From a virus, in the UHGV virus genome UHGV-0075042: 42,328 nucleotides of DNA, one strand, 5' to 3'. The position numbers were made by a program, and so were the translations under genes. Below, in pieces: positions 1 through 34,531 of the stretch (the first letter of the stretch is position 1; each line of letters begins with the position of its first letter). The notes beneath the pieces are model-generated. The model did not search any database. It was not told the origin of the DNA and saw only the letters and a program-made list of their open reading frames with translations.

Positions 1-1158
1 ATGCTCACCGTTAAGCAGATTGAAGCAGCAAAGCCGAAAGAAAAACCATACCGCCTTCTCGATGGTAATGGCCTGTACCTTTATGTCCCTGTATCCGGGA
101 AAAAGGTATGGCAGCTTCGCTACAAGATTGACGGTAAGGAGAAAATACTGACCGTCGGAAAATATCCGCTTATGACTTTGCAAGAGGCAAGGGATAAAGC
201 ATGGACTGCGAGGAAAGACATCTCGGTTGGCATCGATCCGGTAAAGGCGAAAAAGGCTTCGTCTAACAACAATTCCTTTAGTGCGATTTACAAGGAATGG
301 TACGAGCATAAGAGGCAAGTCTGGTCAGCCGCCTATGCGACTGAACTTGCAAAAATGTTTGATGACGACATTTTACCTATCATCGGCGGCCTTGAAATTC
401 AGGATATTGAGCCGATGCAACTGCTGGAAGTAATCCGCAGATTTGAAGATCGCGGGGCAATGGAGCGAGCCAACAAAGCACGCAGAAGATGCGGCGAGGT
501 TTTCCGTTACGCTATTGTCACCGGAAGGGCTAAATATAACCCGGCACCTGACCTTGCTGACGCCATGAAGGGATACCGCAAGAAGAACTTCCCGTTTTTA
601 CCTGCCGACCAGATCCCGGCATTCAACAAAGCACTTGCAACATTTTCAGGAAGTATCGTATCTCTCATTGCGACCAAAGTTTTACGCTACACAGCACTAA
701 GAACAAAAGAGCTTCGTTCCATGCAATGGAAGAACGTCGATTTTGAAAACAGGATTATCACCATCGAGGCCAGTGTGATGAAGGGACGCAAGATTCATGT
801 GGTTCCGATGTCGGACCAGGTTGTTGAACTTCTCACTACGCTAAGCTCCATCACTAAACCAGTATCAGAGTTTGTTTTTGCCGGGCGCAACGATAAGAAG
901 AAGTCAATCTGCGAGAACGCGGTATTGCTTGTGATCAAACAAATCGGCTATGAGGGTCTGGAAAGCGGTCACGGATTCAGGCATGAATTCAGCACAATTA
1001 TGAACGAGCACGAATGGCCTGCTGACGCTATTGAAGTGCAACTGGCACATGCCAACGGCGGATCTGTGCGTGGTATTTACAACCATGCTCAGTATCTCGA
1101 TAAGCGCAGAGAAATGATGCAGTGGTGGGCGGACTGGCTTGATGAAAAGGTGGAGTGA
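1..1158 (+). CDS. Tyrosine integrase, P4-like family (second integrase of the element)
   Basis: 385-aa ORF; N-terminus has the arm-binding domain pattern typical of P4-like integrases (KPYRLLDGNGLYLYV...GKKVWQLRYKIDGKEK); C-terminus has HGFRHEF and RGIYNHAQY-type catalytic motifs. ATG is at window position 1, so upstream context is not visible. Confidence 0.85.
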   Translation: MLTVKQIEAAKPKEKPYRLLDGNGLYLYVPVSGKKVWQLRYKIDGKEKILTVGKYPLMTLQEARDKAWTARKDISVGIDPVKAKKASSNNNSFSAIYKEWYEHKRQVWSAAYATELAKMFDDDILPIIGGLEIQDIEPMQLLEVIRRFEDRGAMERANKARRRCGEVFRYAIVTGRAKYNPAPDLADAMKGYRKKNFPFLPADQIPAFNKALATFSGSIVSLIATKVLRYTALRTKELRSMQWKNVDFENRIITIEASVMKGRKIHVVPMSDQVVELLTTLSSITKPVSEFVFAGRNDKKKSICENAVLLVIKQIGYEGLESGHGFRHEFSTIMNEHEWPADAIEVQLAHANGGSVRGIYNHAQYLDKRREMMQWWADWLDEKVE

Positions 1159-1307
1159 CCCACCTTAAATACCGAAGAGCACAAAGCCTTGCAATCCAGT
1201 GCAAAGCTTTGCGTACCAGAGTTTTTCCTCATCAACTACCGCAAGTATCGATCGATTGAGACTTGGATGATAGACTTCATGCCTTTCAGAACTCATTGAT
1301 TAAATAA
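1159..1307. other. Candidate intact attP-like spacer between the second integrase and gtrA
   Basis: 149-bp non-coding spacer in the int-attP-gtrABC arrangement of P22-like phages; perfect palindrome GCAAAGCTTTGC at 1201..1212 and a stem-loop spanning the int stop codon (1148..1167). No tRNA-like 3' end recognised. Confidence 0.3.
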
Positions 1308-1670
1308 ATGTTAAATATATTTGCAAGGTACACCTCGATTGGTGTGCTGAACACACTTATACACTGGGTGGTTTTTGGTGTATGTATCTATGCCGCGCAT
1401 ACCAATCAGGCTCTGGCAAACTTCGCAGGTTTCGTTGTGGCTGTGAGTTTTAGCTTCTTCGCGAATGCAAAATTCACATTCAAAGCATCAACTACAACGA
1501 TGCGCTACATGTTATATGTCGGGTTCATGGGAACACTGAGTGCTACTGTTGGATGGGCTGCTGATAGATGCGCACTTCCTCCGATGATAACTCTTGTCAC
1601 CTTCTCCGCCATCAGCCTGGTGTGCGGTTTCGTCTATTCAAAGTTCATTGTCTTTAGGGATGCGAAATGA
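1308..1670 (+). CDS. gtrA: GtrA, bactoprenol-glucose flippase (O-antigen conversion)
   Basis: 120-aa small 4-TM protein, start [24 protein letters not shown] typical of GtrA; first gene of a gtrABC operon. Confidence 0.9.
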
Positions 1671-2581
1671 AAATTTCTTTAGTCGTTCCGGTCTTTAACG
1701 AAGAGGCCACGATACCTATTTTTTATAAAACCGTGCGCGAATTTGAAGGGCTTCAGCAGCATGAAGTCGAGATAGTCTTCATAAACGATGGCAGCAAAGA
1801 CGCTACAGAATCAATTATCAACGAGCTTGCTGTTGCCGACCCGCTTGTGGTTTCGCTGTCGTTCACACGTAACTTCGGCAAAGAACCTGCCCTGTTCGCA
1901 GGTCTGGACCATGCTACCGGGGAGGCAATTATCCCGATTGACGTTGATCTGCAAGACCCTATCGAAGTTATTCCTCACTTGATAGAGAAATGGCAGGCCG
2001 GTGCAGATATGGTTCTGGCTAAACGCTCTGACCGCTCCACTGACAGCAGGCTGAAGCGTAAATCTGCTGAGTGGTTCTATAAACTTCATAACAAAATCAG
2101 CAACCCTCAGATAGAAGAGAATGTTGGCGACTTCCGGCTCATGTCTCGCGAAGTAGTAGAAAACATTAAGCTCATGCCAGAACGAAACCTGTTTATGAAG
2201 GGTGTGCTGAGCTGGGTTGGTGGTCGAACCGATGTCGTAGAATATGCGCGAGCAGAACGCGTTGCAGGAAGCACAAAGTTCAATGGATGGAAGCTATGGA
2301 ACTTGGCGCTGGAAGGGATCACTAGCTTTTCTACTTTCCCTTTGCGCATGTGGACTTATATAGGCCTGTTTGTGGCAACCTTATCATTCCTTTATGGAGC
2401 ATGGATGATTGCTGATAAATTGATGTTTGGAAATAGTGTTCCAGGTTACCCTTCTATCATTGTATCAATATTGTTTCTTGGTGGAGTTCAGTTAATAGGC
2501 ATAGGAGTTCTTGGAGAGTATATAGGAAGAATTTATGTTGAAGTTAAGCAGCGACCAAGATACATTCTAAAGGATAAGTAA
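1667..2581 (+). CDS. gtrB: GtrB, bactoprenol glucosyltransferase (GT2 family)
   Basis: 304 aa; GT2 motifs ([20 protein letters not shown]) and C-terminal TM helices; start overlaps gtrA stop. Confidence 0.9.
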
Positions 2582-2582
2582 A

Positions 2583-4049
2583 ATGACTTTAAATATAAAA
2601 AAAACAGCCATATACATCATTGGATTTATATTCCTGACTTTCTTCTACGCCTCGATTTCAAAACAGATTTTGCCAAGTTCGGATGCTGTTTCTGGACTTC
2701 TTGAGGGTAAGGACATTGCGGACGGAAATTGGACGCTTAGTGGATGGTATCTCTCTACAGTATCATTCTATTTTACAGACATAATATGGTACGGGCTTGC
2801 TTCAAAGGTATTCTGGTACGGACAGTACCAAGCATACTGCATACCGGCAATTATGTATTCAATGGTTACATTGATGACATTTTATCTTTCAAAAGAAAGG
2901 CTTTCATCGTTATGGGCCATTTCATTTTGCGTTGCGCTGCCTTCTGGGTTTGCAGTATTAAACGTATTAATACCTGTGATACATGTCGGCACATATGTAT
3001 CCATGTTGTTTTGCTTCATAATGTTAGACAATTTTTCCAAAACAAGATCGTTAATTTCTCTATCTCTTTATATTTTAGTGTTAGCTCTAGCTTGTTTCAG
3101 TGATGACATCATAAAGCTACTCATTATTGCACCAGTAGCAATATCATCAGTGATTTTTATAGTAAAAACCAAAAGCCAAAAAAATCTGATCATACTAGTT
3201 GCAACTATATTTGCATATGTTGCATCAAAAATTATGACCATGTACGCAAGAGCTCATAACTGGTACATTTTGCCAGGCGTTCCAGATCCAACATTTGTTG
3301 CATTTGATGATATCCTGAATAATTTATACTTATTCGTAAAAGGATTCCTCCTATACAGTGGAGCTTTCTTCTTTGGCAAGCCACCTTCTGATATTACAGC
3401 GCTTATTTCTGTTTTTTGTTTTGTTGTAATGATTTTACTTCTTATATTAGTTGCAATGTCAGTAAAGGAAATATTCTTTACCTCCATGATCAATATGGCT
3501 ATATGTATAGCTTGTATTATAATGATACCAGCATACCTTGCAAGTAACCGTCCAATAGATGAATGGACTATAAGATATATCGTTCCATTTTTTATACTAG
3601 CACCTGTTGTTATTGGCAGATCTAACAACTCCAGAGGGTGGAAATTCATCGCATTAGGGGTTGTTACAACATTTATTCTCTTTTGTTCTATTTATATGCA
3701 TGAAAAAAAAGACAATTCTAATGATATTATAAATCAGATAAAACACACTGTAAGGCAGAATAACCTCACAAACGGGTATGCATCTTTCTGGTTTGCTTCA
3801 TCAGCAAGTATAGATGGAGACATATCAATTGCTCCGATTGATGTAAACCGAGGTTTGAATATACTTGCATGCAATAAATGGTTGTCAAAAAACTATTGGT
3901 ATGAGCGCGGAGGAAATTTCATAATTACAGATGACGAGGTTATGAGAAATATAACAATTAAAGAGATTGGTAATCCATCAAAGGTTATTGACGTCGGAGA
4001 TAAGAAGATTTTTGTTTACGATAAAAACATTACATTCAACTGCAATTAA
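2583..4049 (+). CDS. GtrC-type serotype-specific O-antigen glucosyltransferase (polytopic membrane protein)
   Basis: 488-aa highly hydrophobic multi-TM protein directly after gtrB; markedly AT-rich, as is typical of the type-specific third gene of gtr operons. Confidence 0.7.
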   Translation: MTLNIKKTAIYIIGFIFLTFFYASISKQILPSSDAVSGLLEGKDIADGNWTLSGWYLSTVSFYFTDIIWYGLASKVFWYGQYQAYCIPAIMYSMVTLMTFYLSKERLSSLWAISFCVALPSGFAVLNVLIPVIHVGTYVSMLFCFIMLDNFSKTRSLISLSLYILVLALACFSDDIIKLLIIAPVAISSVIFIVKTKSQKNLIILVATIFAYVASKIMTMYARAHNWYILPGVPDPTFVAFDDILNNLYLFVKGFLLYSGAFFFGKPPSDITALISVFCFVVMILLLILVAMSVKEIFFTSMINMAICIACIIMIPAYLASNRPIDEWTIRYIVPFFILAPVVIGRSNNSRGWKFIALGVVTTFILFCSIYMHEKKDNSNDIINQIKHTVRQNNLTNGYASFWFASSASIDGDISIAPIDVNRGLNILACNKWLSKNYWYERGGNFIITDDEVMRNITIKEIGNPSKVIDVGDKKIFVYDKNITFNCN

Positions 4050-4057
4050 TTAAATAA

Positions 4058-4080: not shown

Positions 4081-5844
4081 TCATACACTTGTACCATCCG
4101 CCCTCTTCCATTCAGATGATACTGTGTTATACCATATTGGAAGACCTAGCGTTGTATCATAATACATCTGCCCACTGACTGGTGCTGTAGGGCGCTGCGC
4201 AGTAGATCCACGGTTTTGATAAGTCGTCTGAGTATCATTAACACCTAGACAAGCTATAATACGATTTTTGCGCTCTTCCGATGTATTAAGGTAAATCTTG
4301 GTCGTCATATCGCTATCGAAAGAAACGCCATTGATGGTTATGCCGTTACAGTTATCGGCGGGGTCTGTGATCCCAAGTGGTTGCACGTAGTATCCACCTC
4401 TGATATAAGACGTACCCATAGAGCCGCCAATAACAGATATTTCTTTACAGTTTACCAACGATAGCCCACCAGTCTTATTTCCGTTGAATATATTATTAGA
4501 CAAAGAACATTGTTCAGCATTTTCCAATACCATGCCGAACTCACCACAGTAAGTGATAGTGTTTCCCGTAAATGTTAGATTTCTTGCCCCTTTAATATTA
4601 ATTCCACGACTATTGTTTATCCTCCCTGCACTAATAATGTTACCGCTGATGGTAGCGTAAGCCAGACTCTCCATATCAAAAGCAGTACCGTTGATGGCAT
4701 CAAAAACGCTATTTGAAATTATAACCGGATAACCCGCGAATTGGTCTGTTCCACCCATCTCACCAAGTGTTGTGCGTGTTCTTACCGCAAAATCTCCAGC
4801 AAACATTGAGCATTCACTAATAAATAAATCGGCGGTATCCCATACGTCAATCGGAGAGTTAGAACTGAAACACATAAGAAACTTAGGTGATTCGCTGATG
4901 AACTCCACAGTATTTAAATCCGCACGCCCCAAGAATGGACTACCCCAACGTTCGCACCGGAAGAAGTTAACGTAATGGTAGTTGTTCATAGTAGTTTGTG
5001 CGTTATAGAAAAACACCCGATCAAACTCTAAGTTCTGGACATGACGACAAACAATCCAGTTAATCAGCACGTCGGATGATATGACTACATCTCGGAATAT
5101 GCCACCCTGTTTCCACTGACTAGCAGCCGGGCCAGACCCTGTAAGGGTAAACATAGTGAAGGTTGAATCAGAACCTAGATATTTAATCTCTGGATTTTTT
5201 GCGTTACCAATAATTTCATATTTTGCTGGAAGCTCAATGTCTCTGGTCTTCATTCCATATATGCCAGAACCTTTCAAGTGAATTTTTCTTGCGCCTGAAG
5301 CGAATGCCTTCTGAAAGGCTATGCTATTATCTGTTGTTCCAGAATCATCTTTGCCACCAAAGTCTTCCAAAAATACAAAATCATCCAGCTTTTCTTGTAC
5401 ATTCCTGAAGACAGCACCATCAACAACAGATGGTAATCCATACTTATACTTTACTGTTTCAGGGAATGCCCCGCTTGCAAACTCTCCCTCTAGCTCCTGC
5501 CGGAACTGGTCCGGGTCATACTTGAGAATGTTTGGATAGTAGAACTGCTGTGTGCCATATGCGTCATACACAGCCATTGAATGTCCCTGTACGGTAACGA
5601 ACTTTGCAATCTGTCCGTTATATACCGGATAACCAGCAGCGTTAATGATGATTGGTTGCGAAACAGGAACGTGAGAGCCGTCTTCGTTCTCTACATAAAC
5701 CTGAATCTGGTTTTCAGGATTTACCGGGTCAGTGTCAATTTTACCGATATAAATTTTGCCATTGGCAACGGCTTTAAAAGAACGCGCCATAGTGAAGAGT
5801 TGCGAAGGCATGCTTACCACAACATTGGCTGTAATGTCTGTCAT
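4081..5844 (-). CDS. Tailspike protein (P22-like N-terminal head-binding domain plus distinct beta-helix receptor-binding domain)
   Basis: 587 aa; N-terminal ~110 aa ([13 protein letters not shown]...[21 protein letters not shown]...[13 protein letters not shown]) matches the conserved head-binding domain of P22/Sf6-family tailspikes as recalled; remainder is Gly/Asn/Ser-rich, beta-helix-like. Confidence 0.85.
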
Positions 5845-6008: not shown

Positions 6009-8006
6009 CTATTCTGACAACGCATCAGACTTAGCACCCTGAGTCATGGCGCTAATTGCCTTTTGTGCCTGCTGCATGGCTTTCTCAAACGCTGTTGATC
6101 CACGTGGGGTGTTTGCCATTCTGAGCATTGCATTTCTGAATGGCTCGCTCTCATAGGCGCGAGTAAGAAGTCCGTAGCTTACTGCTGCGCCAGTTGTCGC
6201 CGGGTTCATTGCCGTACCATACCCAATAATGAACGGGATGGTTTGCTGCCCTGTGGGTGTTGTTACTGCCGCTTTTGCAGCCTGCTGCGTGGATTGCAGG
6301 TAGTTTTTTAATCCTTTCAGATAAGCAGCGTCCTGACCCTTAAATGTGATGCCAGTCTGGTTTTGCAGGATGTTAAGCTGCCGAAGGAACTGGTCAGGGG
6401 ATCCGCCAGATTTCTCCATCGCCTTTCCAATGATGCCATTGCGCATTTGCGCCCTGCCAACACGACCAACTGAGTTATACAGAGTCTTAATTTCCGATTT
6501 GTTCTTGCTGAATAGCATGTTGTTGACAACTTCCGGCGTCAGATCGCCTTTCATGAGAACATTCTTCAGCCTGGTATTCTTTAGTTTCGCCGCTTCGTCA
6601 GCGTAGACGGCATTGGCCTGCTGATATTTCCGGAGAGTATCGTTGCCAAGATTCTGACCAATGACACTATTGATATCGTCGGTCATTGCCTTGTAAACGC
6701 GCTGAATGGCGGCATCGGAACGGTTTGGTAACACTGGTCGCCCCCCCTTCACGTCCATTCTGAACTGGCTGCGCAGATCGCTTAATTGTTTCAAATCCAG
6801 ATTTACCGGACCATCAGGACCAGCATTGCGAACAAGCTCATCACGATATGATTGAAGTTTTGAAATCGTCTCGTTATCAGCAACCTTACCAAGCTTCTGC
6901 AGATTAGATATCTCAGTATCAATCTGCTGAATTGCTCGCGCAGGCTGAATGTTGACTCCCGCCATTGCATTCTGAACCTGCTCAAGACGGTTCCCAGCAG
7001 CACGACGAATTCCTGATGTTTTCGCTTTAAGGCTGTCAATAATAACCGCTGGATCATACTCACCGAATTTATCAGCAAATCTCTGCACCAACTGACTTCT
7101 CGCTTCCTGTTGCGTTGCTCTCATTCCGCTTGTGCCAGCCAGGGGGATATTTTCTGCTGTCGTTTGCGCCATTTTTCCGACGCGGGAAGTAGGCTGTAAG
7201 AGGTCAGTAGTATGAAGAGGCACCCCTTCACGCTCTGCAAATCTGATAGCCTGTTGCGCTTCTGGTGCGATAGCACCACGAACGCCACGATAAGCAGCAC
7301 CTAATCCACGTCCAGCAGCGTTAATAGCGCCTCCAGCCAGAACACCAACGCCTAAATCGGTGGCGAGTGCTTCCGCATCATCTTTCGCACTATTTGCAGC
7401 AAGTGTTCCGACTGCGTTTTCTGCGAGAAGGCGAGTTGCACCCTGAGCAATTCGACCAGCAAGTGTTGGTGCCTGTGTTGCCGCTCTCTCAACGCCAGCA
7501 GGAGTGAGATAAGGCAATGCCTCAGCAAATACCCTGCCCTCTGTCGTTTGTGGAGTCAGCGCGCCTTGCTGAAGACCAAAGTCCTGTTCTAATCCCTGCG
7601 TTGTTACTCGTGGCGCTGGTTGATATGTCCCATCGCCAATGCCGAGTTTACCGCCAGCCCATGCCGCCGCGCTTGTTACAGCATCGGCAATTGATGCAGG
7701 TATGTTTGCCACGTTCACGCCAGCCTGCACCAGTCCGCGACCAGTCTCTTTCACTGCTTCACCAAGGTCAGACATAAATCTACTTTGCTGTGGTTGTTGC
7801 TGTGCTACTGGTTGCTGTGTCTCCACTGGCTGCACAGATGACAATGGATAGGCTGCATAGAAAGCTTGCTTAGCCTGCTCTGCATTTTCTCCGGCTTGCG
7901 GTGCCACGACTTCATTGAAGTATTGCTCCTGAGCCTGCGCTTTTTGTTCTGGTGCTAACGCCTGATACTGTGGAGAGGCGATAACATCTTTCCATGCTTT
8001 AGCCAT
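6009..8006 (-). CDS. Ejection (E) protein, gp16-like (position-based)
   Basis: 665-aa Ala/Gln/Gly-rich protein, last gene before the tailspike in a P22/Sf6-like order; start is 10 bp from the IS1 left end. Confidence 0.65.
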   Translation of the reverse strand: MAKAWKDVIASPQYQALAPEQKAQAQEQYFNEVVAPQAGENAEQAKQAFYAAYPLSSVQPVETQQPVAQQQPQQSRFMSDLGEAVKETGRGLVQAGVNVANIPASIADAVTSAAAWAGGKLGIGDGTYQPAPRVTTQGLEQDFGLQQGALTPQTTEGRVFAEALPYLTPAGVERAATQAPTLAGRIAQGATRLLAENAVGTLAANSAKDDAEALATDLGVGVLAGGAINAAGRGLGAAYRGVRGAIAPEAQQAIRFAEREGVPLHTTDLLQPTSRVGKMAQTTAENIPLAGTSGMRATQQEARSQLVQRFADKFGEYDPAVIIDSLKAKTSGIRRAAGNRLEQVQNAMAGVNIQPARAIQQIDTEISNLQKLGKVADNETISKLQSYRDELVRNAGPDGPVNLDLKQLSDLRSQFRMDVKGGRPVLPNRSDAAIQRVYKAMTDDINSVIGQNLGNDTLRKYQQANAVYADEAAKLKNTRLKNVLMKGDLTPEVVNNMLFSKNKSEIKTLYNSVGRVGRAQMRNGIIGKAMEKSGGSPDQFLRQLNILQNQTGITFKGQDAAYLKGLKNYLQSTQQAAKAAVTTPTGQQTIPFIIGYGTAMNPATTGAAVSYGLLTRAYESEPFRNAMLRMANTPRGSTAFEKAMQQAQKAISAMTQGAKSDALSE

Positions 8007-8070: not shown

Positions 8071-8346
8071 GTGGCTTCTGTTTCTATCAGCTGTCCCTCC
8101 TGTTCAGCTACTGACGGGGTGGTGCGTAACGGCAAAAGCACCGCCGGACATCAGCGCTATCTCTGCTCTCACTGCCGTAAAACATGGCAACTGCAGTTCA
8201 CTTACACCGCTTCTCAACCCGGTACGCACCAGAAAATCATTGATATGGCCATGAATGGCGTTGGATGCCGGGCAACAGCCCGCATTATGGGCGTTGGCCT
8301 CAACACGGTTTTACGTCACTTAAAAAACTCAGGCCGCAGTCGGTAA
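8071..8346 (+). CDS. insA: IS1 InsA
   Basis: 91 aa, [43 protein letters not shown] matches IS1 InsA. Confidence 0.9.
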
Positions 8347-8768
8347 CCTCGCGCATACAACCGGGCAGTGACGTCATCGTCTGCGCGGAAATGGACGAAC
8401 AGTGGGGCTATGTCGGGGCTAAATCGCGCCAGCGCTGGCTGTTTTACGCGTATGACAGGCTCCGGAAGACGGTTGTTGCGCACGTATTCGGTGAACGCAC
8501 TATGGCGACGCTGGGGCGTCTTATGAGCCTGCTGTCACCCTTTGACGTGGTGATATGGATGACGGATGGCTGGCCGCTGTATGAATCACGCCTGAAGGGA
8601 AAGCTGCACGTAATCAGCAAGCGATATACGCAGCGAATTGAGCGGCATAACCTGAATCTGAGGCAGCACCTGGCACGGCTGGGACGGAAGTCGCTGTCGT
8701 TCTCAAAATCGGTGGAGCTGCATGACAAAGTCATCGGGCATTATCTGAACATAAAACACTATCAATAA
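8265..8768 (+). CDS. insB: IS1 InsB (transposase made by InsAB' frameshifting)
   Basis: 167-aa frame overlapping insA 3' end, as in IS1; exact functional start depends on the programmed -1 frameshift. Confidence 0.8.
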
Positions 8769-29401: not shown

Positions 29402-30219
29402 GCAATCCCCCTGTCTGCAAACTTCCCTTCACGAACTCCCGTTAACGAATCTTCTCTCAGCAGGTAATCAAAATCGGCCGTCCAGCCCGTGTCGTTGTCT
29501 CCGAAGTAAAACGGCTTGGCCTGATGCACAAACGCCCTGACATACGCTCTGAAACCGTCCACGTTTGGCGTTTTCAGTTGCGGGATGATTTTCTTCAGGC
29601 GGCGTTTGCGTTTCTCGTTGACCGCAACAGCATGTGGAAGTCTGTCACCGACTTCGGTGTTGTAGGCGTTCAGGAAGGATTCGTAGTCGATTCGTTCTGC
29701 CTTGCGACGTTCAGGTTTAACCTGCCCATCGCCGCCCCCGTTAGGGGGTAAGGGGGTATTTGTATTTATTGTCTTTTGTATATTGTCTTTTGTGTTTAGC
29801 TGACTTGGCTTATACCCATTAGCCGACTTAGCTAATGTTTTATTAGCTGTTTTAGCTAATTTTAAGCTGTCCTGGCTAATCCACTGAGAAACCACCTTGT
29901 TCACTCCGATTTTCACGCCATCAGCAATGAGGAATTTACGCTCAATAAGCTGGCGCTTGGCAGCGCAAACATGAGTGTGATGAATACCTGTCATGGCTGC
30001 TATCTGCGTGTTTGTGAGTCGATCCATCGGCTTATTGAATCCGTATGTCTTGCGCATGATAGCGAGCATCACCTTCAACTGCCGGACGGTTAAATCAGCC
30101 ATCAGCAGACTGTCGGTAATCTCGTTAGCAACGCGCATGAAACCATCTTCGGTATCTGCCAAGCGATGCTCCACGACCTCCAGTTGAGGCCTGTAATCAG
30201 CTAACTTAACGACGCCCAT
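29398..30219 (-). CDS. Replication initiator (lambda O / P22 gene 18-like) with internal origin
   Basis: 273 aa; N-terminal domain with [36 protein letters not shown] resembles lambda O; central linker overlies iterated repeats. Confidence 0.8.
29768..29880. repeat. Replication origin iterons inside the initiator gene
   Basis: ATTGTCTTTTGT twice (29768..29779, 29783..29794), repeated TTAGCTAAT/TAGCTGT units (29828..29880), and inverted CCCCCGTTAGGGGG nearby. Confidence 0.6.
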
Positions 30220-30401
30220 GTTTCACTCCTGCTTTGGCTAGTCTGTAAACACCAACAAGGCGCTCTGCGAACGCCCTGTTATTTGCTGCGGCTACCACTA
30301 ATCCCTCAGGTGAATCAGGGTGTCGAATCTCTTCTTTTTCCTGGTATTTCTTACGACGTTTTGTCATAATTACTCCTGTGGATTGATCCAGTCTTTCTAC
30401 A

Positions 30402-30680
30402 TCAGGCCTCAAAACTGTTGCAGCAGTCTTGAGGCTTTTCTTTTGTCAGCACCTTGGCTACTTTCTTTGCCAGTTCCGCCAATTCCTCGTCTTCAACACC
30501 CCACTCCAGCACAGCCAGAAGCATGGCCATCTTTGGGATAAAGCTGTCTTTCCATCGCGAAATTTGCGATTCATTAATCCCTAATGCATCAGCAACCTTT
30601 CGCTGACCACGTACAGCAATTCGATTCAGGATGTTGCTTGTAATTGCATTCGCTTTCTTGCGAGTACTTGTAAGTTGCAT
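30402..30680 (-). CDS. cII: CII-like transcriptional activator
   Basis: From ATG at 30680 preceded by TAAGGAAATACTTACAT (lambda cII RBS context as recalled); contains GINESQISRWKDSFIPKMAMLLAVLEWGV like lambda CII. Confidence 0.8.
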   Translation of the reverse strand: MQLTSTRKKANAITSNILNRIAVRGQRKVADALGINESQISRWKDSFIPKMAMLLAVLEWGVEDEELAELAKKVAKVLTKEKPQDCCNSFEA

Positions 30681-30737
30681 ATGTAAGTATTTCCTTAACA
30701 AATAAGAAGTTATACGCACCAACTGATGCGCGTTGTA

Positions 30738-30782
30738 TTCCCGCATTTCGGCGGGAATGAGGACCATGACTGTTAAAGAGCG
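30738..30782 (-). promoter_or_regulatory. nutR (boxA CGCTCTTTAACA plus boxB hairpin)
   Basis: On the pR transcript: boxA at 30771..30782, then hairpin UUCCCGC-CGAAAU-GCGGGAA at 30738..30757; between cro and cII. Confidence 0.65.
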
Positions 30783-30788
30783 GTGTTA

Positions 30789-30983
30789 CTATTTGTTTTT
30801 CTTGTTGCTTGGGAAAGGACGAACTTCCTCTCCAATCACACTGCCATCAGGCTTTACCGTAACCATAATGTTACGGCCTGCCAGAATGGCCTTGCTGATA
30901 GCGCACTGGATTACACCAAAGTCACTGGCTGCTTTAGCCTGTCCATGGATTTTGGCGTAATCGGCAAGTGTCATTCGAATCAT
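30789..30983 (-). CDS. cro: Cro repressor
   Basis: [62 protein letters not shown] resembles lambda Cro; ATG at 30983 preferred over the GTG at 30989. Confidence 0.85.
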
Positions 30984-31012
30984 ATGCACTCTCCGTTATT
31001 AACCATGAACAA

Positions 31013-31053
31013 AGAATACTACAGGTATTCAAAGCAATCAATACTCAGGGTAT
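31013..31053. promoter_or_regulatory. Right operator region (oR sites overlapping pR/pRM)
   Basis: Two sites with the palindromic AATAC-N5-GTATT pattern (31013..31029 GAATACTACAGGTATTC; 31039..31053 AATACTCAGGGTATT) between divergent cro and cI. Confidence 0.6.
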
Positions 31054-31089
31054 TTTTAGTTTAAGTACCTTAGCTATTAGAATTAAGCT

Positions 31090-31806
31090 ATGGAAAATAA
31101 AAAATCACTGACGACAGAACAGCTCGAAGACGCTAAGCGGCTTAAGGCTTTGTATGAGTCAAAAAAGAAAGAATTGGGAATAACCCAATACTCAATCGCT
31201 GATGAACTGGGTATCACCCAAGGAGCGGTAGGGCATTATCTTAATGGCAGAAACGCGCTAAACGTTGAGGTTGCATCTGGTTTTGCACGACTGTTGCAAG
31301 TCTCAATTGCTGATTTTAGCCAGTCAATTGCTGCCAAGGTTGCAGAACAGGCAGAAAGCCTTAAGAGCGATGCCAACGTAAGGTATGCAGGGGAATACAG
31401 AGCAGGAAAGAGGTATCCGGTGTTAAGCAGTATCCAGGCTGGCTCGTGGTGTGAAGCATGCGAACCATACACCATTAAAGACATAGATGTTTGGCTTGAG
31501 TCTGACGCGCATATTCAAGGTAATGCGTTTTGGCTTAAAGTGGAAGGTGATTCAATGACGGCACCGGTTGGGTTAAGCATTCCAGAGGGAACATTCGTTC
31601 TTTTCGATACCGGAAGGGAGGCGATCAACGGCAGCTTGGTCATAGCAAAACTTTCTGACTCTAACGAAGCAACATTCAAGAAGCTGATAATCGACGGCGG
31701 AAATAAATACCTCAAGGGACTTAACCCTGCATGGCCTCTCGTGCCAATCAATGGAAACTGCAAGATTATAGGCGTTGCAATTGAGACAAAACTAAGGCTG
31801 GTTTGA
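31090..31806 (+). CDS. cI: CI repressor (HTH plus S24 LexA-like autocleavage domain)
   Basis: 238 aa; LTTEQLEDAKRLKALYESKKKELGITQ resembles lambda CI; C-terminal domain with FWLKVEGDSMTAP (Ser) and FKKLIIDGG (Lys) catalytic-dyad context. Confidence 0.9.
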   Translation: MENKKSLTTEQLEDAKRLKALYESKKKELGITQYSIADELGITQGAVGHYLNGRNALNVEVASGFARLLQVSIADFSQSIAAKVAEQAESLKSDANVRYAGEYRAGKRYPVLSSIQAGSWCEACEPYTIKDIDVWLESDAHIQGNAFWLKVEGDSMTAPVGLSIPEGTFVLFDTGREAINGSLVIAKLSDSNEATFKKLIIDGGNKYLKGLNPAWPLVPINGNCKIIGVAIETKLRLV

Positions 31807-31823
31807 TCACGCAAGGGGCGCTT

Positions 31824-32192
31824 ATGGTTGGAACCGCTATAGCAAGCTTTTTTGGGATGTTGGCAATCTCGACAATTTACGGCTTAGCGCATGCTTTTAT
31901 TGCGAAATCTCTATCAGAAAAAATAAGCCAGGCTTGGGCGCATAGATCAGCTCGTTTCATGATTCTGGTGATCATGGCAATACAAGGAATATCTGCATTT
32001 ATCCTCTATGGATCAAGCTTATACCTATTGTATCAAGGCGCGACATTTACGCCTTACACCAGTGATTACGGAACTCTATACGATGGTAGTGAAGACATCT
32101 CTATGGCTTGGATTGTCTTTGGTTTATCTATGGCCGTGTCTGTTGTAGCAGACATCATTAAGGTAATTCTCGTCTTAACCTTCGCTGACTAA
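31824..32192 (+). CDS. Small multi-TM membrane protein in the rex position after cI
   Basis: 122-aa product from ATG at 31824 (TTG at 31803 overlapping the cI stop also possible); several hydrophobic helices; same strand as cI, upstream of oL. Confidence 0.6.
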   Translation: MVGTAIASFFGMLAISTIYGLAHAFIAKSLSEKISQAWAHRSARFMILVIMAIQGISAFILYGSSLYLLYQGATFTPYTSDYGTLYDGSEDISMAWIVFGLSMAVSVVADIIKVILVLTFAD

Positions 32193-32323
32193 CCCATAAT
32201 CCCGGCAGCAATAGCTATCGGGATCCACTTCACATATCCCGCATAAAAAGCACTGAACAAGCAGACACCGAAAAAATAAATATCCTTTGTATTCATTTGC
32301 TTATCATTATTTCACCAAAAATA

Positions 32324-32365
32324 AATACCTTGGGTATTTACACAATAAAATACCTACAGTATTCT
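32324..32365 (+). promoter_or_regulatory. Left operator/promoter region (oL/pL)
   Basis: Two AATAC-N5-GTATT operator sites (32324..32338, 32349..32363) overlapping a candidate promoter (TTTACA 32337..32342, 17 bp, TATTCT 32360..32365). Confidence 0.55.
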
Positions 32366-32410
32366 TTAGCCATCAGCAGGACGCTGGTAGCCAAACGGAA
32401 CAGATTGGCA

Positions 32411-32452
32411 GGCTCTTTAACATTGATGGGATTGTCCCGCCGAAATGCGGGA
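32411..32452 (+). promoter_or_regulatory. nutL (boxA GGCTCTTTAACA plus boxB hairpin)
   Basis: boxA-like at 32411..32422 and hairpin UCCCGC-CGAAAU-GCGGGA at 32435..32452 (same RNA hairpin as nutR); between pL and N. Confidence 0.65.
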
Positions 32453-32559
32453 ACCAAAGAGTAGTTGGCTTTGGGGTGACGTGAAGTGCAGCTGCACGAC
32501 GGCAACCGGAAGATAAGCACCCGGCGCGTCACCGCCAAAGTCAATCATCGGAGGTCAAC

Positions 32560-32832
32560 ATGACAGTAGTCATTACATATCTGGCTGACGATAACGCCAG
32601 AAATCGCCGCAGAGCACGCAGACAGGCTCAACGTGAACAGGCAATGCAAGAACAGCGACTGGCGCGAAAGATTGCGCTAAAGCTCTCTGGTTGCGTCAGA
32701 GCAGACAAAGCAGCATCACTCGGAAGCCTTCGCTGTAAGGAAGAAGATGAACGCAGTGGAAGTATTTGCCTGCCAAACGTAGCTCTTTACGCGGCAGGCT
32801 ACCGGAAATCAAAACAACTGACAGCGAGATGA
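32560..32832 (+). CDS. N: N-type transcription antiterminator
   Basis: 90 aa; arginine-rich motif NARNRRRARRQAQREQ near N-terminus; C-terminus LPNVALYAAGYRKSKQLTAR resembles P22 gene 24 product as recalled. Confidence 0.8.
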   Translation: MTVVITYLADDNARNRRRARRQAQREQAMQEQRLARKIALKLSGCVRADKAASLGSLRCKEEDERSGSICLPNVALYAAGYRKSKQLTAR

Positions 32833-32848
32833 TAAATTCATTTGCTAA

Positions 32849-33430
32849 TTACTTGTTTTTGCCATGCTTATCCTGAGCGATAAGTTCATCCATAAGGCTG
32901 TCTGCCTTCCCGGCAAACCTAATGTAGCACTCATGTCTATAGCTTTCCGGGATAATAAAACGGTCGGTATCAGGATATCCAACAGCAGGAGGCCTTCGAA
33001 CGAGGAGGCCTTTTTTGAGCAATGAAATTGATTCATGAGCTCCCTTTTCCGTTTGTAGCTGGTTATTAGCGGCTACAGCGAATGCCAAATACGCTCTTTC
33101 TCCAAGAGTTAACGAATCAAACAAATCTTGCACATATTTTTCTTCTTTGGATTTGCGCTTCTGAGCAGCGGATACCTCAATTCTTTCAGTCACAGCGTGA
33201 TAAGCGGAATTAACTACACCGTTAAGCACATAGCTAACGCAGAACAACAGGATGTAATACATCCAATAATGAGGAAGGATTTCTGGATTATGCAGGTTTA
33301 TCCATTCTTTTACGCTTACCGGCATAACAATAATCAATATGATCAGGATGATTAGCATATGAATCAACTGTTTAAGTGTCATTCCTTGCAGGAAAAAATG
33401 CATTAGTTCCTGCCACCATGAGTTGTTCAT
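32849..33430 (-). CDS. sieB: Superinfection exclusion protein B
   Basis: 193 aa, opposite to pL transcription next to N; N-terminal TM helices; matches lambda/P22 SieB by position and as recalled by sequence. Confidence 0.8.
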   Translation of the reverse strand: MNNSWWQELMHFFLQGMTLKQLIHMLIILIILIIVMPVSVKEWINLHNPEILPHYWMYYILLFCVSYVLNGVVNSAYHAVTERIEVSAAQKRKSKEEKYVQDLFDSLTLGERAYLAFAVAANNQLQTEKGAHESISLLKKGLLVRRPPAVGYPDTDRFIIPESYRHECYIRFAGKADSLMDELIAQDKHGKNK

Positions 33431-33634
33431 CGGCGTTTCTCTTTTGCTCTCTGTAGGGGTGAATAGAGTTTATCCGATTTCTCGCTGTAGGGGTACACGA
33501 GAACCACCGAGCCTGATGTGGTTAAAAGACAGGCACAATCTTTACTACAGCAAGCCACGCAGTGAAATGGGTGTGACTTGTGTTGGTCGCCAGAAAATGA
33601 AATTAGGCAGCAAACCACTTATTTGAGGTGAGAT

Positions 33635-33721
33635 ATGGAAGAAGAATTTGAAGAGTTCGAAGAGCATCCGCAGGATGTGATGGAACAATACCAGGACTAT
33701 CCGTATGACTACGACTATTGA
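33635..33721 (+). CDS. Small acidic protein (lambda orf28-like)
   Basis: 28-aa ORF MEEEFEEFEEHPQDVMEQYQDYPYDYDY read by hand; overlaps ral start. Below ORF-track cutoff. Confidence 0.4.
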   Translation: MEEEFEEFEEHPQDVMEQYQDYPYDYDY

Positions 33722-33905
33722 TAAAAATCAATGGTGTGGACAATTCAAACGATGCAATGGATGCAAGCTGCAATCGGAATGCATGGTTAAGCCTGAAGAA
33801 ATGTTTCCTGTAATGGAAGATGGGAAATATGTCGATAAATGGGCAATACGAACGACGGCAATGATTGCCAGAGAACTTGGTAAACAGAACAACAAGGCTG
33901 CCTGA
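33705..33905 (+). CDS. ral: Ral, restriction alleviation protein
   Basis: 66 aa, MTTTIDKNQWCGQFKRCNGCKLQSECMVKPEE matches lambda Ral as recalled. Confidence 0.85.
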   Translation: MTTTIDKNQWCGQFKRCNGCKLQSECMVKPEEMFPVMEDGKYVDKWAIRTTAMIARELGKQNNKAA

Positions 33906-34041
33906 TGGTGGCCTTCATTTTTGGCATAAACAACAGAATAAATACTGCACTGTGTATTCATTCCAACGAGTGAATACACGGAGCAATGTCGCTCGTAACT
34001 AAACAGGAGCCGACTTGTTCTGATTATTGGAAATCTTCTTT

Positions 34042-34067
34042 GCCCTCCAATGTGAGGGCAATTTTTT
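34042..34067 (+). terminator. Intrinsic terminator within the pL operon (tL-like)
   Basis: GCCCTC-CAATGT-GAGGGC hairpin followed by AATTTTTTAT. Confidence 0.55.
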
Positions 34068-34087
34068 ATCTATGAGGATATGAACAG

Positions 34088-34456
34088 ATGTCAAACATCA
34101 AAAAATACATCATTGATTACGACTGGAAAGCATCAATAGAAATTGAAATCGACCATGACGTAATGACAGAGGAAAAACTTCACCAGATTAATAATTTCTG
34201 GTCAGACTCTGAATACAGACTCAAAAAACACGGCTCTGTATTAAATGCTGTATTAATCATGCTAGCGCAACATGCTCTGCTTATAGCAATTTCAAGCGAC
34301 TTAAATGCATATGGTGTTGTGTGTGAGTTCGACTGGAATGATGGAAATGGTCAGGAAGGATGGCCTCCAATGGATGGTAGCGAAGGAATAAGAATTACCG
34401 ATATCGACACATCTGGAATATTTGATTCAGATGATATGACTATCAAAGCCGCCTGA
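34088..34456 (+). CDS. Ea10-like early protein
   Basis: 122-aa ORF between ral and cIII, the position and size of lambda ea10. Confidence 0.55.
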   Translation: MSNIKKYIIDYDWKASIEIEIDHDVMTEEKLHQINNFWSDSEYRLKKHGSVLNAVLIMLAQHALLIAISSDLNAYGVVCEFDWNDGNGQEGWPPMDGSEGIRITDIDTSGIFDSDDMTIKAA

Positions 34457-34531
34457 GCGCGGCTTTACCGCATACCAATAACGCTTCACTCGAGGCGTTT
34501 TCGTTATGCAATCAAACAGAAGGAGCATCCT

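Follow-up and report, generated by a model that had tools for sequence, protein, structure and literature searches.

What does the single gene directly behind the repressor gene cI do in a prophage where phage lambda would carry rexA and rexB? We addressed this question in UHGV-0075042, a viral genome of 42,328 nucleotides (nt) (hereafter the window), whose gene content is that of a complete P22-like prophage. The gene, hkaS, lies there between cI (31090–31806, + strand) and the oL/pL region (~32271–32365), which is followed by the antiterminator gene N. Our analysis revealed that hkaS is a conserved but replaceable passenger of one cI lineage, encoding a predicted three-pass membrane protein, HkaS, for which we tentatively favour a role in superinfection exclusion.

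hkaS is a conserved gene with its own translation start

The hkaS coding sequence (CDS) occupies positions 31824–32192 on the + strand (stop codon at 32190–32192), encodes 122 amino acids (aa) and matches PHROG 6534, a family of unknown function. Its DNA is 99% identical with that of hkaS in coliphage HK620, whose GenBank record (AF335538) names the gene and gives its product as 'unknown'; in all other records the product is a hypothetical protein. Listed since the HK620 genome entry, the gene has never been characterized. The longest open reading frame (ORF) runs for 129 codons on the + strand, from a TTG at 31803 to the stop at 32190–32192, and the initial annotation had let the gene begin at or overlapping the cI stop codon. 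This is not the biological start. The in-frame TTG extension (31803–31823, +), which overlaps the cI stop (31804–31806), is peculiar to the window allele; the Hafnia-type allele has the TTG in a different frame from the ATG, and the spacers of other lineages differ, so TTG 31803 was rejected. The conserved start is ATG 31824, 17 nt past the cI stop, and a Shine–Dalgarno (SD) sequence, AAGGGG (31813–31818, +), can be read 5 nt ahead of it. An SD-like purine run and an ATG 17–20 nt past the cI stop were found in 13 diverged lineages despite their differing spacers. The ~122-aa ORF that had been noted in the rex slot between cI and oL/pL was confirmed, and its length fits a start at ATG 31824.

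A word-indexed search of 5.8 billion proteins gave 12 clusters of relatives for one query sequence and 36 for a nine-sequence profile. Except for a small number of truncated or frameshifted forms, the 36 clusters contained proteins of 121–122 aa that were 45–100% identical, and pairs diverged to 45% identity with essentially no insertions or deletions (indels). All clusters came from Enterobacterales, the host genera being Escherichia, Salmonella, Hafnia, Klebsiella, Citrobacter, Enterobacter, Cronobacter and Raoultella. The ratio of non-synonymous to synonymous divergence (dN/dS) was 0.14 between the window and the Hafnia type, 0.17–0.20 between deeper types and 0.20 between the loci L008 and L105, indicating that hkaS is under purifying selection. 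The gene was intact in all 80 of the IMG/VR copies inspected, and frameshifted or truncated clusters held six member sequences compared with 623 in intact clusters. Thus the cluster set of constant length, the low-indel divergence, the dN/dS values and the intact IMG/VR copies show that hkaS is a real gene, far beyond a chance ORF.

The HF4s allele is frameshifted by a 1-nt deletion in the A6 run of codons 32–34 (31918–31923, +), as seen in an alignment of the window, HK620 and HF4s. Phage HF4s forms lysogens despite this frameshift, for which a sequencing error in the homopolymer is a possible source. Three homopolymers lie in or before the 5′ third of hkaS, namely T6 (31848–31853), A6 (31918–31923) and the G4 within the SD sequence (31815–31818), and these runs coincide with the frameshifted alleles of HF4s and of clusters P0006, P0007 and P0009. 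Such frameshifts could represent sequencing errors, decay or slippage-prone sites.

A very hydrophobic antisense ORF of 35 aa (32189–32296, − strand; MNTKDIYFFGVCLFSAFYAGYVKWIPIAIAAGIMG), convergent with hkaS, was considered as a type-I-toxin-like partner and rejected, since the diverged lineages all lack it or have a different sequence there and its ATG falls within an operator-like repeat. It is an annotated CDS in HF4s and, judging from feature counts, probably in mEpX2, HK140, phi296 and phi367 as well. We regard the ORF as probably spurious rather than as a small toxin.

Predicted co-transcription of hkaS with cI

The operators OR1–OR3 and the divergent promoters pR and pRM lie at 31014–31079, according to coordinates transferred from the HK620 annotation (window = locus + 28499, verified on the starts of cI, hkaS and N), and operator-like direct repeats were found at 31010–31029 and 31035–31054. 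pRM is the presumed promoter of the lysogen cI–hkaS transcript. A consensus scan of the + strand from the OR region to pL detected no σ70-like promoter and no intrinsic terminator, although weak signals could escape such a scan. Since hkaS lies 17 nt past cI on the same strand with no detected promoter or terminator between them, the simplest reading is that both genes would be carried on a bicistronic message from pRM, and from pRE during establishment. Seven nt past the hkaS stop there is a hairpin (32199–32224, +; arms ATCCCGGCAGC and GCTATCGGGAT) that lacks a U-tract, as identified by repeat search and RNA folding. It is retained in Hafnia-type loci with altered loop bases, gave no call in the terminator scan, and may be a 3′-end stabilizer or a weak terminator. 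A moron in the strict sense has its own promoter and terminator; the consensus scan, which may miss weak signals, shows neither canonical signal around hkaS, only the U-tract-less hairpin on its 3′ side, and the gene appears to behave as operon cargo like rexAB. An Rfam scan of 30000–34500 returned only eukaryotic snoRNA matches at chance level.

The textbook case of this architecture is the lambda cI–rexA–rexB operon. The same arrangement was demonstrated experimentally for cI–bstA of prophage BTP1 (PMC7067206), and in both cI–bstA and cI–rexAB the repressor promoter drives the slot genes in lysogens (PMC7067206, PMC8585504). Expression of hkaS in lysogens is therefore to be expected only by way of its operon structure and of this analogy, which together make it a well-founded proposal.

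HkaS is predicted to be a three-pass membrane protein

Hydropathy analysis of HkaS revealed three hydrophobic segments, at approximately residues 1–27, 43–70 and 94–121. Loop 1 (28–44) contains four lysine or arginine residues and one acidic residue, whereas loop 2 (71–93) contains no lysine or arginine and four aspartate or glutamate residues. Applied to these loops, the positive-inside rule predicts a three-pass inner-membrane protein with the N-terminus outside and the C-terminus inside (N-out/C-in). An AlphaFold2 model built from a shallow alignment had a predicted local distance difference test score (pLDDT) of 92.5 and a predicted template modelling score (pTM) of 0.77, with helices at 2–29, 31–38, 41–73 and 89–121, three of them long, and a short β-hairpin at ~78–86. 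Thus the multi-transmembrane (TM) protein proposed by the initial annotation, which had called for topology and structure prediction, was borne out in silico by three hydrophobic segments and three long modelled helices.

An alignment of nine diverse members contained 32 invariant columns. Invariant residues of the cytoplasmic loop are Lys33, Gln36, Trp38, His40, Ala43, Arg44 and Phe45, and Gln54 is invariant in TM2. Tyr67, Leu69, Thr74, Gly88, Trp96 and Phe99 mark the periplasmic ends of TM2 and TM3, and Asp110 and Lys113 are invariant within TM3, as is the C-terminal LTFAD. Variation is found at the tip of the hairpin on the periplasmic side and on several faces of the helices.

The window protein matched PHROG 6534 with an E value of 4.6e-79 over residues 1–122 of 122 and was 96.7–98.3% identical with HkaS of HK620, HK630, HK140 and mEpX2. 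Searches for more distant relatives in 5.8 billion proteins, first with one sequence and later with the nine-sequence profile, returned nothing beyond the family, and an exhaustive hidden Markov model search of 1.84 billion cluster representatives yielded the representative of the family itself, a 44-aa fragment and nothing else. A sequence search of the PDB gave no match at E values up to 10, a scan of the GTDB species representatives gave no relative, and fold searches offered no functional hint. Among Pfam, NCBIfam and PADLOC models there was no meaningful match, and among PHROGs only PHROG 6534; matches to TssN (E 0.066) and to an amidase PHROG (E 0.08) were rejected as chance level. A literature search for 'hkaS' with HK620 retrieved no paper, the matches to an unrestricted 'hkas' were irrelevant, and the papers mentioning mEpX2, HK140, HK630 or HF4s do not address the gene. 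By sequence comparison, HkaS is an orphan that falls outside every characterized exclusion family.

hkaS follows a single cI lineage and is replaceable

The initial annotation had asked whether homologues of the gene always stand next to a repressor. In ~115 of the ~115 loci for which upstream sequence was available, which represent at least eight genera, hkaS is preceded by cI of one lineage (84–100% identical), and every one of these loci has the order cro (−), cI (+, 238 aa), hkaS (+), oL/pL and N. The loci inspected came from 11 first look-ups, 79 of 79 IMG/VR loci, five further diverged IMG/VR loci and 11 loci in five additional genera. In a set of 50,697 phage records, the window cI (at least 99% identity) and hkaS occurred in exactly the same 16 records. 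The carriers include the podoviruses HK620, HF4s and phi296, the siphoviruses HK630, HK140 and mEpX2, and Shiga toxin 2c (Stx2c)-converting phages; in complete Escherichia coli genomes the block was present in 146 of 5,426 (~2.7%), with cI and hkaS together in every case. On either side the sequence is mosaic: cII is 61–100% identical, N is 65–100% identical or of another type, and the replication genes nearby vary between P, DnaB and primase types. Even where N has been replaced in related loci (by a type with 65% identity or by the N36 type), cI and hkaS stay paired.

Four loci (L100, L101, L103 and L104) carry the same cI lineage (87–89% identical) without hkaS. The cI–N slot is empty in L100 and L101, whereas in L103 and L104 a KilA-N/BstA-like gene and a P63C-domain gene replace hkaS (3294–4055 and 4130–5128 of L103). 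The 253-aa KilA-N protein of L103, in which cI is 87% identical with that of the window, matched the PADLOC BstA model with an E value of 6.5e-20. The slot is also empty in Serratia phage OS31 (cI 71% identical) and in P22, and is occupied by hex in phage 434 and by rexAB in lambda. The cI–N interval is a recognized hotspot of prophage-expressed accessory genes such as rexAB and bstA (PMC8585504, PMC7067206, PMC2629481); the argument from the rex position made in the initial annotation is sound, and is already standard in the same literature. Because loci with the same cI have either an empty slot or a BstA-like gene in its place, we conclude that hkaS is dispensable, replaceable cargo of this known hotspot.

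Evolution of hkaS alleles

Non-synonymous divergence in hkaS was 4–5-fold that in cI (0.098 compared with 0.022, and 0.33–0.44 compared with 0.07–0.09). Approximately six HkaS allele types, with 45–61% mutual identity, occur on cI backgrounds of 84–100% identity, and some pairs are discordant, combining cI of 94–95% with HkaS of 51–52% identity, or cI of 100% with HkaS of 87%. In the pair L008 and L105, DNA identity is 97–100% on both flanks and 80–87% inside hkaS, and synonymous divergence (dS) is 0.35 in hkaS compared with 0.11 in the adjacent cI. This higher dS points to recombinational exchange of hkaS alleles, and not just to relaxed constraint. Within the E. coli clade, variable sites in codons without an amino acid change were equally dense in both genes, whereas sites in amino-acid-changing codons were ~7-fold denser in hkaS than in cI, all of the changes being conservative. 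Such a pattern fits a fast-evolving accessory gene and is by itself no proof of diversifying selection. Pairwise HkaS identity also correlated with the identity of the cI DNA-binding domain (Spearman 0.62).

Possible functions of HkaS

In the explanation that we favour, hkaS would be the promoter-distal gene of a pRM–cI–hkaS immunity operon in lambdoid and P22-like prophages of the HK620 type. With translation starting at a dedicated ribosome-binding site, the product would insert into the cytoplasmic membrane as a three-helix protein, with its N-terminus and an acidic, aromatic-rich β-hairpin loop (~71–93) facing the periplasm, and with the basic, strongly conserved loop Lys33–Phe45 and the invariant C-terminus (...LTFAD) facing the cytoplasm. 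This structural and operon part of the explanation appears highly probable to us. HkaS made by the lysogen would then block an inner-membrane step of the entry of an incoming phage genome, as P22 SieA, HK97 gp15 and T4 Imm do. By analogy with those proteins, HkaS may be a single-protein, membrane-level superinfection-exclusion factor, to which we assign a probability of about 0.38. We infer the whole anti-phage function of HkaS, and regard an exclusion role as a plausible and conventional hypothesis. The reading of the initial annotation, which had predicted constitutive lysogen expression and an exclusion or abortive-infection role, is thereby supported in part. It is favoured because the slot is classical for such functions and holds a BstA-like defence gene in sister loci, because HkaS needs no partner and the SieA precedent acts alone, and because the variable part of HkaS is predicted to face the periplasm, where the ejection or tape-measure proteins of an incoming phage act.

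Several points weigh against exclusion. The known entry-blocking genes sieA, HK97 gp15 and cor lie near the tail or ejection genes of the excluded phage type, whereas hkaS travels with the immunity module across podoviruses, siphoviruses and Stx2c phages, and is matched to no single injection apparatus. The most conserved HkaS surfaces are cytoplasmic, which fits a host partner or a regulatory role equally well, and the fast evolution of hkaS through conservative changes (among Ile, Val, Leu and Met, or among Ser, Thr and Ala) may reflect the tolerance of transmembrane helices. Furthermore, HkaS has no homology with any exclusion protein, and the literature searched contained no experiment or transcript data on hkaS. 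A more specific form of the exclusion proposal, in which HkaS would represent a new family of immunity-operon-borne, single-protein inner-membrane exclusion factors whose allele types differ in target specificity through the variable periplasmic hairpin, is distinctly improbable. If true, such a specificity cassette would be carried along with a single immunity type in eight or more enterobacterial genera, Stx2c phages included.

HkaS could alternatively be a conversion factor for host physiology that alters a membrane function of the host to the advantage of the lysogen (for example by regulating a transporter, sensor kinase or protease, or through tolerance of envelope or acid stress), phages not being its target. 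The invariant residues on the cytoplasmic loop and the C-terminus, together with the intramembrane Gln54, Asp110 and Lys113, are as binding to a conserved host partner predicts, and the spread of the family through at least eight enterobacterial genera, with the block in 146 of the 5426 complete E. coli genomes, is consistent with it. Other lysogen-expressed lambdoid genes, bor and lom, act on host traits. Nevertheless, we consider this role unlikely, as HkaS has no resemblance to small regulatory membrane proteins described so far, the gene that can take its slot behind the same cI lineage is of the defence type, and the cI–N slot is best known for phage-directed functions (PMC8585504).

The strict linkage with one repressor raises the question of whether HkaS modulates the lysis–lysogeny switch or the induction of HK620-type immunity, like 434 Hex or the bias exerted by RexA/RexB, and maybe via a membrane protease, for instance FtsH. 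The gene was found beside one cI/Cro lineage only (~115/115 loci) and nowhere else in the 5.8 billion proteins or 1.84 billion representatives, the cI DNA-binding domain and HkaS are correlated in pairwise identity as described above, and 434 Hex, in the same position, acts on its own repressor (PMC3564112). However, this modulation is weakened by the four loci with the same cI that lack hkaS and by the lysogens formed by HF4s, and the recombination of hkaS alleles between cI genes that are almost identical speaks against a tight co-adaptation of the two. HkaS has no similarity to Hex, and physical linkage over 17 nt can alone explain the co-inheritance. Lysogeny of HF4s with a frameshifted hkaS argues only against an essential role. 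On balance, we regard a switch modulator as rather improbable. If hkaS does tune induction or host membrane physiology, it would bear on the stability of lysogens, including those of Shiga-toxin phages.

Sharing its slot with rexAB, hkaS could also encode a Rex-like abortive effector, a channel- or holin-like protein that stays silent until an infecting phage triggers collapse of the membrane potential and the cell dies before phage release. Class I holins have three transmembrane segments in an N-out/C-in arrangement, as predicted for HkaS, and the small-residue motifs of TM1 (Gly3, Ala5, Ser8 and Gly11) and the invariant charged Asp110 and Lys113 of TM3 are of a kind frequent in pore-forming or oligomerizing helices. 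Yet HkaS has no sensor partner, its constant neighbours being cI and cro only; it has no similarity to RexB, no match to a holin PHROG or Pfam family and no charged holin-type cytoplasmic tail; and a constitutive, untriggered pore would be costly, yet hkaS is intact in nearly all copies. Such an effector is thus very unlikely, and since a RexA-like partner is never adjacent, a Rex-like two-component system in particular is disfavoured. A SieA-like block of DNA entry appears more likely than a Rex-like abortive system. Finally, that hkaS is a non-functional, decaying ORF hitch-hiking with cI is scarcely credible: the frameshifts at homopolymers in HF4s, P0006, P0007 and P0009 and the ~7-fold excess of amino-acid-changing codon sites over cI in E. 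coli would suit decay, but dN/dS remains at 0.14–0.20 across saturated synonymous divergence, and the constant length, the lack of indels down to 45% identity, the kept SD sequence, the 32 invariant columns and the 623 intact against six broken members all oppose it.

hkaS is present in the genetically tractable model phages HK620 and mEpX2, in ~2.7% of complete E. coli genomes and in Stx2c-converting phages. If a defence role is true, it would lend further weight to the view that prophage defences can generally be sought in the gene after the repressor.

Other features of the prophage

The immunity region of the window is 99% identical at the DNA level with those of coliphages HF4s, mEpX2, HK140, HK630 and HK620. 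Its cI repressor (31090–31806, +; 238 aa) is of the HK620 immunity type, contains HTH_3 and Peptidase_S24 domains (Pfam E values 5e-24 and 8e-10) and is 99.6–100% identical with cI of HK620, mEpX2, HF4s, HK140, HK630 and Stx2c phages. cro (30789–30989) and cII are on the − strand. The downstream boundary of the immunity operon is the oL/pL block, which is kept in all diverged loci. The oL region (32271–32365, +) contains three operator-like repeats (32271–32293, 32316–32338 and 32341–32363), and pL (32337–32365) is a promoter-like site, TTTACA-17-TATTCT, in agreement with the HK620 annotation of OL1, OL2 and pL. The first pL gene, N (32560–32832, +; Pfam N_peptide E 2.9e-16), lies outside the cI–hkaS unit. 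The third operator-like repeat, at 32271–32293, is 78% identical with the OL2 copy and is kept in all diverged loci; it coincides with the terminator tIMM annotated in HK620 (window 32274–32304). We rejected tIMM as a terminator because the site shows no convincing terminator fold and coincides with the repeat. The HK620-annotated OL3 (32301–32317) is a poor match to the operator repeat, and the OL3 and tIMM entries of the HK620 annotation may have to be revised.

A homologue of SieB is encoded on the strand opposite to N, immediately beyond that gene (32849–33430, −), with a Pfam SieB E value of 2e-22 and a full-length match to PHROG 1301. P22 and lambda have sieB in the corresponding place; of 80 related loci, only ~10 carry it. 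The window prophage thus probably has a second lysogen-expressed exclusion gene. The window begins with an integrase gene (1–1158), followed within 1–4049 by a gtrA-like gene (1308–1670, a family match), a 304-aa ORF and a 488-aa ORF, the last of which matches only PHROGs of unknown function. By its position beside the tailspike gene (4081–5844, −), this segment resembles a gtrABC O-antigen conversion cluster, which, if true, would provide a further lysogen-expressed exclusion function through surface modification. Among the minus-strand virion and ejection genes, adjoining the gp16-like ejection protein gene (6009–8006, −), two overlapping ORFs of 91 and 167 aa (8071–8768, +) match the transposase PHROG 720 (E 2e-79). 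They look like an insertion sequence element placed in the late region, which could disable the prophage.

Comparison with known systems

RexB, like HkaS, is a small polytopic inner-membrane protein, with 144 aa and four transmembrane segments compared with 122 aa and three for HkaS. T4 rII and other phages are excluded by the Rex system through depolarization of the membrane. The lambda rexA–rexB pair and hkaS share the slot between cI and oL/pL, the strand of cI and the presumed expression from pRM in lysogens (PMC8585504). However, lambda pairs RexA with RexB, whereas hkaS stands alone between cI and oL, both in the window and in every related locus. The initial annotation saw no obvious similarity to RexB, and this was upheld by hhalign (probability 0.8%, E 0.067 over 20 columns) and by a PHROG scan without a RexB match.

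SieA of P22 is a prophage inner-membrane protein with three predicted transmembrane domains that alone blocks DNA injection, acting on P22-like phages by way of their ejection proteins, and occurs in very divergent sequence types (PMC10883804). HkaS likewise is a single protein with three transmembrane segments, in silico only, and several divergent types. The two proteins are unrelated by hhalign (probability 0.7%) and HkaS has no SieA PHROG or Pfam match. SieA is also longer (162–164 aa), and its gene has its own promoter and stands beside the ejection-protein and tailspike genes, whereas hkaS is part of the immunity operon and has no fixed virion type. HK97 gp15 and T4 Imm are small inner-membrane proteins of the protected cell that each block genome entry alone. 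gp15 is mentioned in PMC3594210 and PMC10883804. HkaS is set apart from both by the PHROG scan, without a pairwise comparison, as it has no match to their families, and their genomic positions differ from that of hkaS. Class I holins are compatible in topology, but HkaS ends one or two residues past TM3 with no charged tail, matches no holin family and is encoded in the immunity operon, not in a lysis cassette.

Two further counterparts in the same position are hex of phage 434 and bstA. hex occupies the same slot as hkaS, directly after and overlapping a cI gene whose product is 52% identical, and is co-transcribed from pRM and expressed in lysogens (PMC3564112). Its product is unrelated to HkaS (hhalign probability 0.08%) and, unlike HkaS, begins with a segment resembling a signal peptide and lacks a polytopic membrane domain. 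Hex was reported to inhibit RecA-stimulated repressor cleavage (PMC3564112). We observed that the signal-peptide-like segment with which 434 Hex begins (MIRIAALLSILLTTSANSEC; 2109–2513 of locus L016) is unexpected given the reported cytoplasmic action of Hex on RecA and the repressor (PMC3564112). BstA, an abortive-infection protein of prophages such as BTP1, follows the same slot and operon logic as hkaS, and a BstA-like gene takes the place of hkaS in L103 and L104 (PMC8585504). BstA is a soluble KilA-N DNA-binding protein of ~300 aa, whereas HkaS has no KilA-N or BstA match in Pfam or PADLOC; as a positive control, the slot protein of L103 matched both models. Taken together, the locus is of a known kind, cargo of the cI–N hotspot, which here carries an uncharacterized protein family. 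Should hkaS prove to act in exclusion or defence, the few single-protein, membrane-level phage blocks would gain a new sequence-orphan family.

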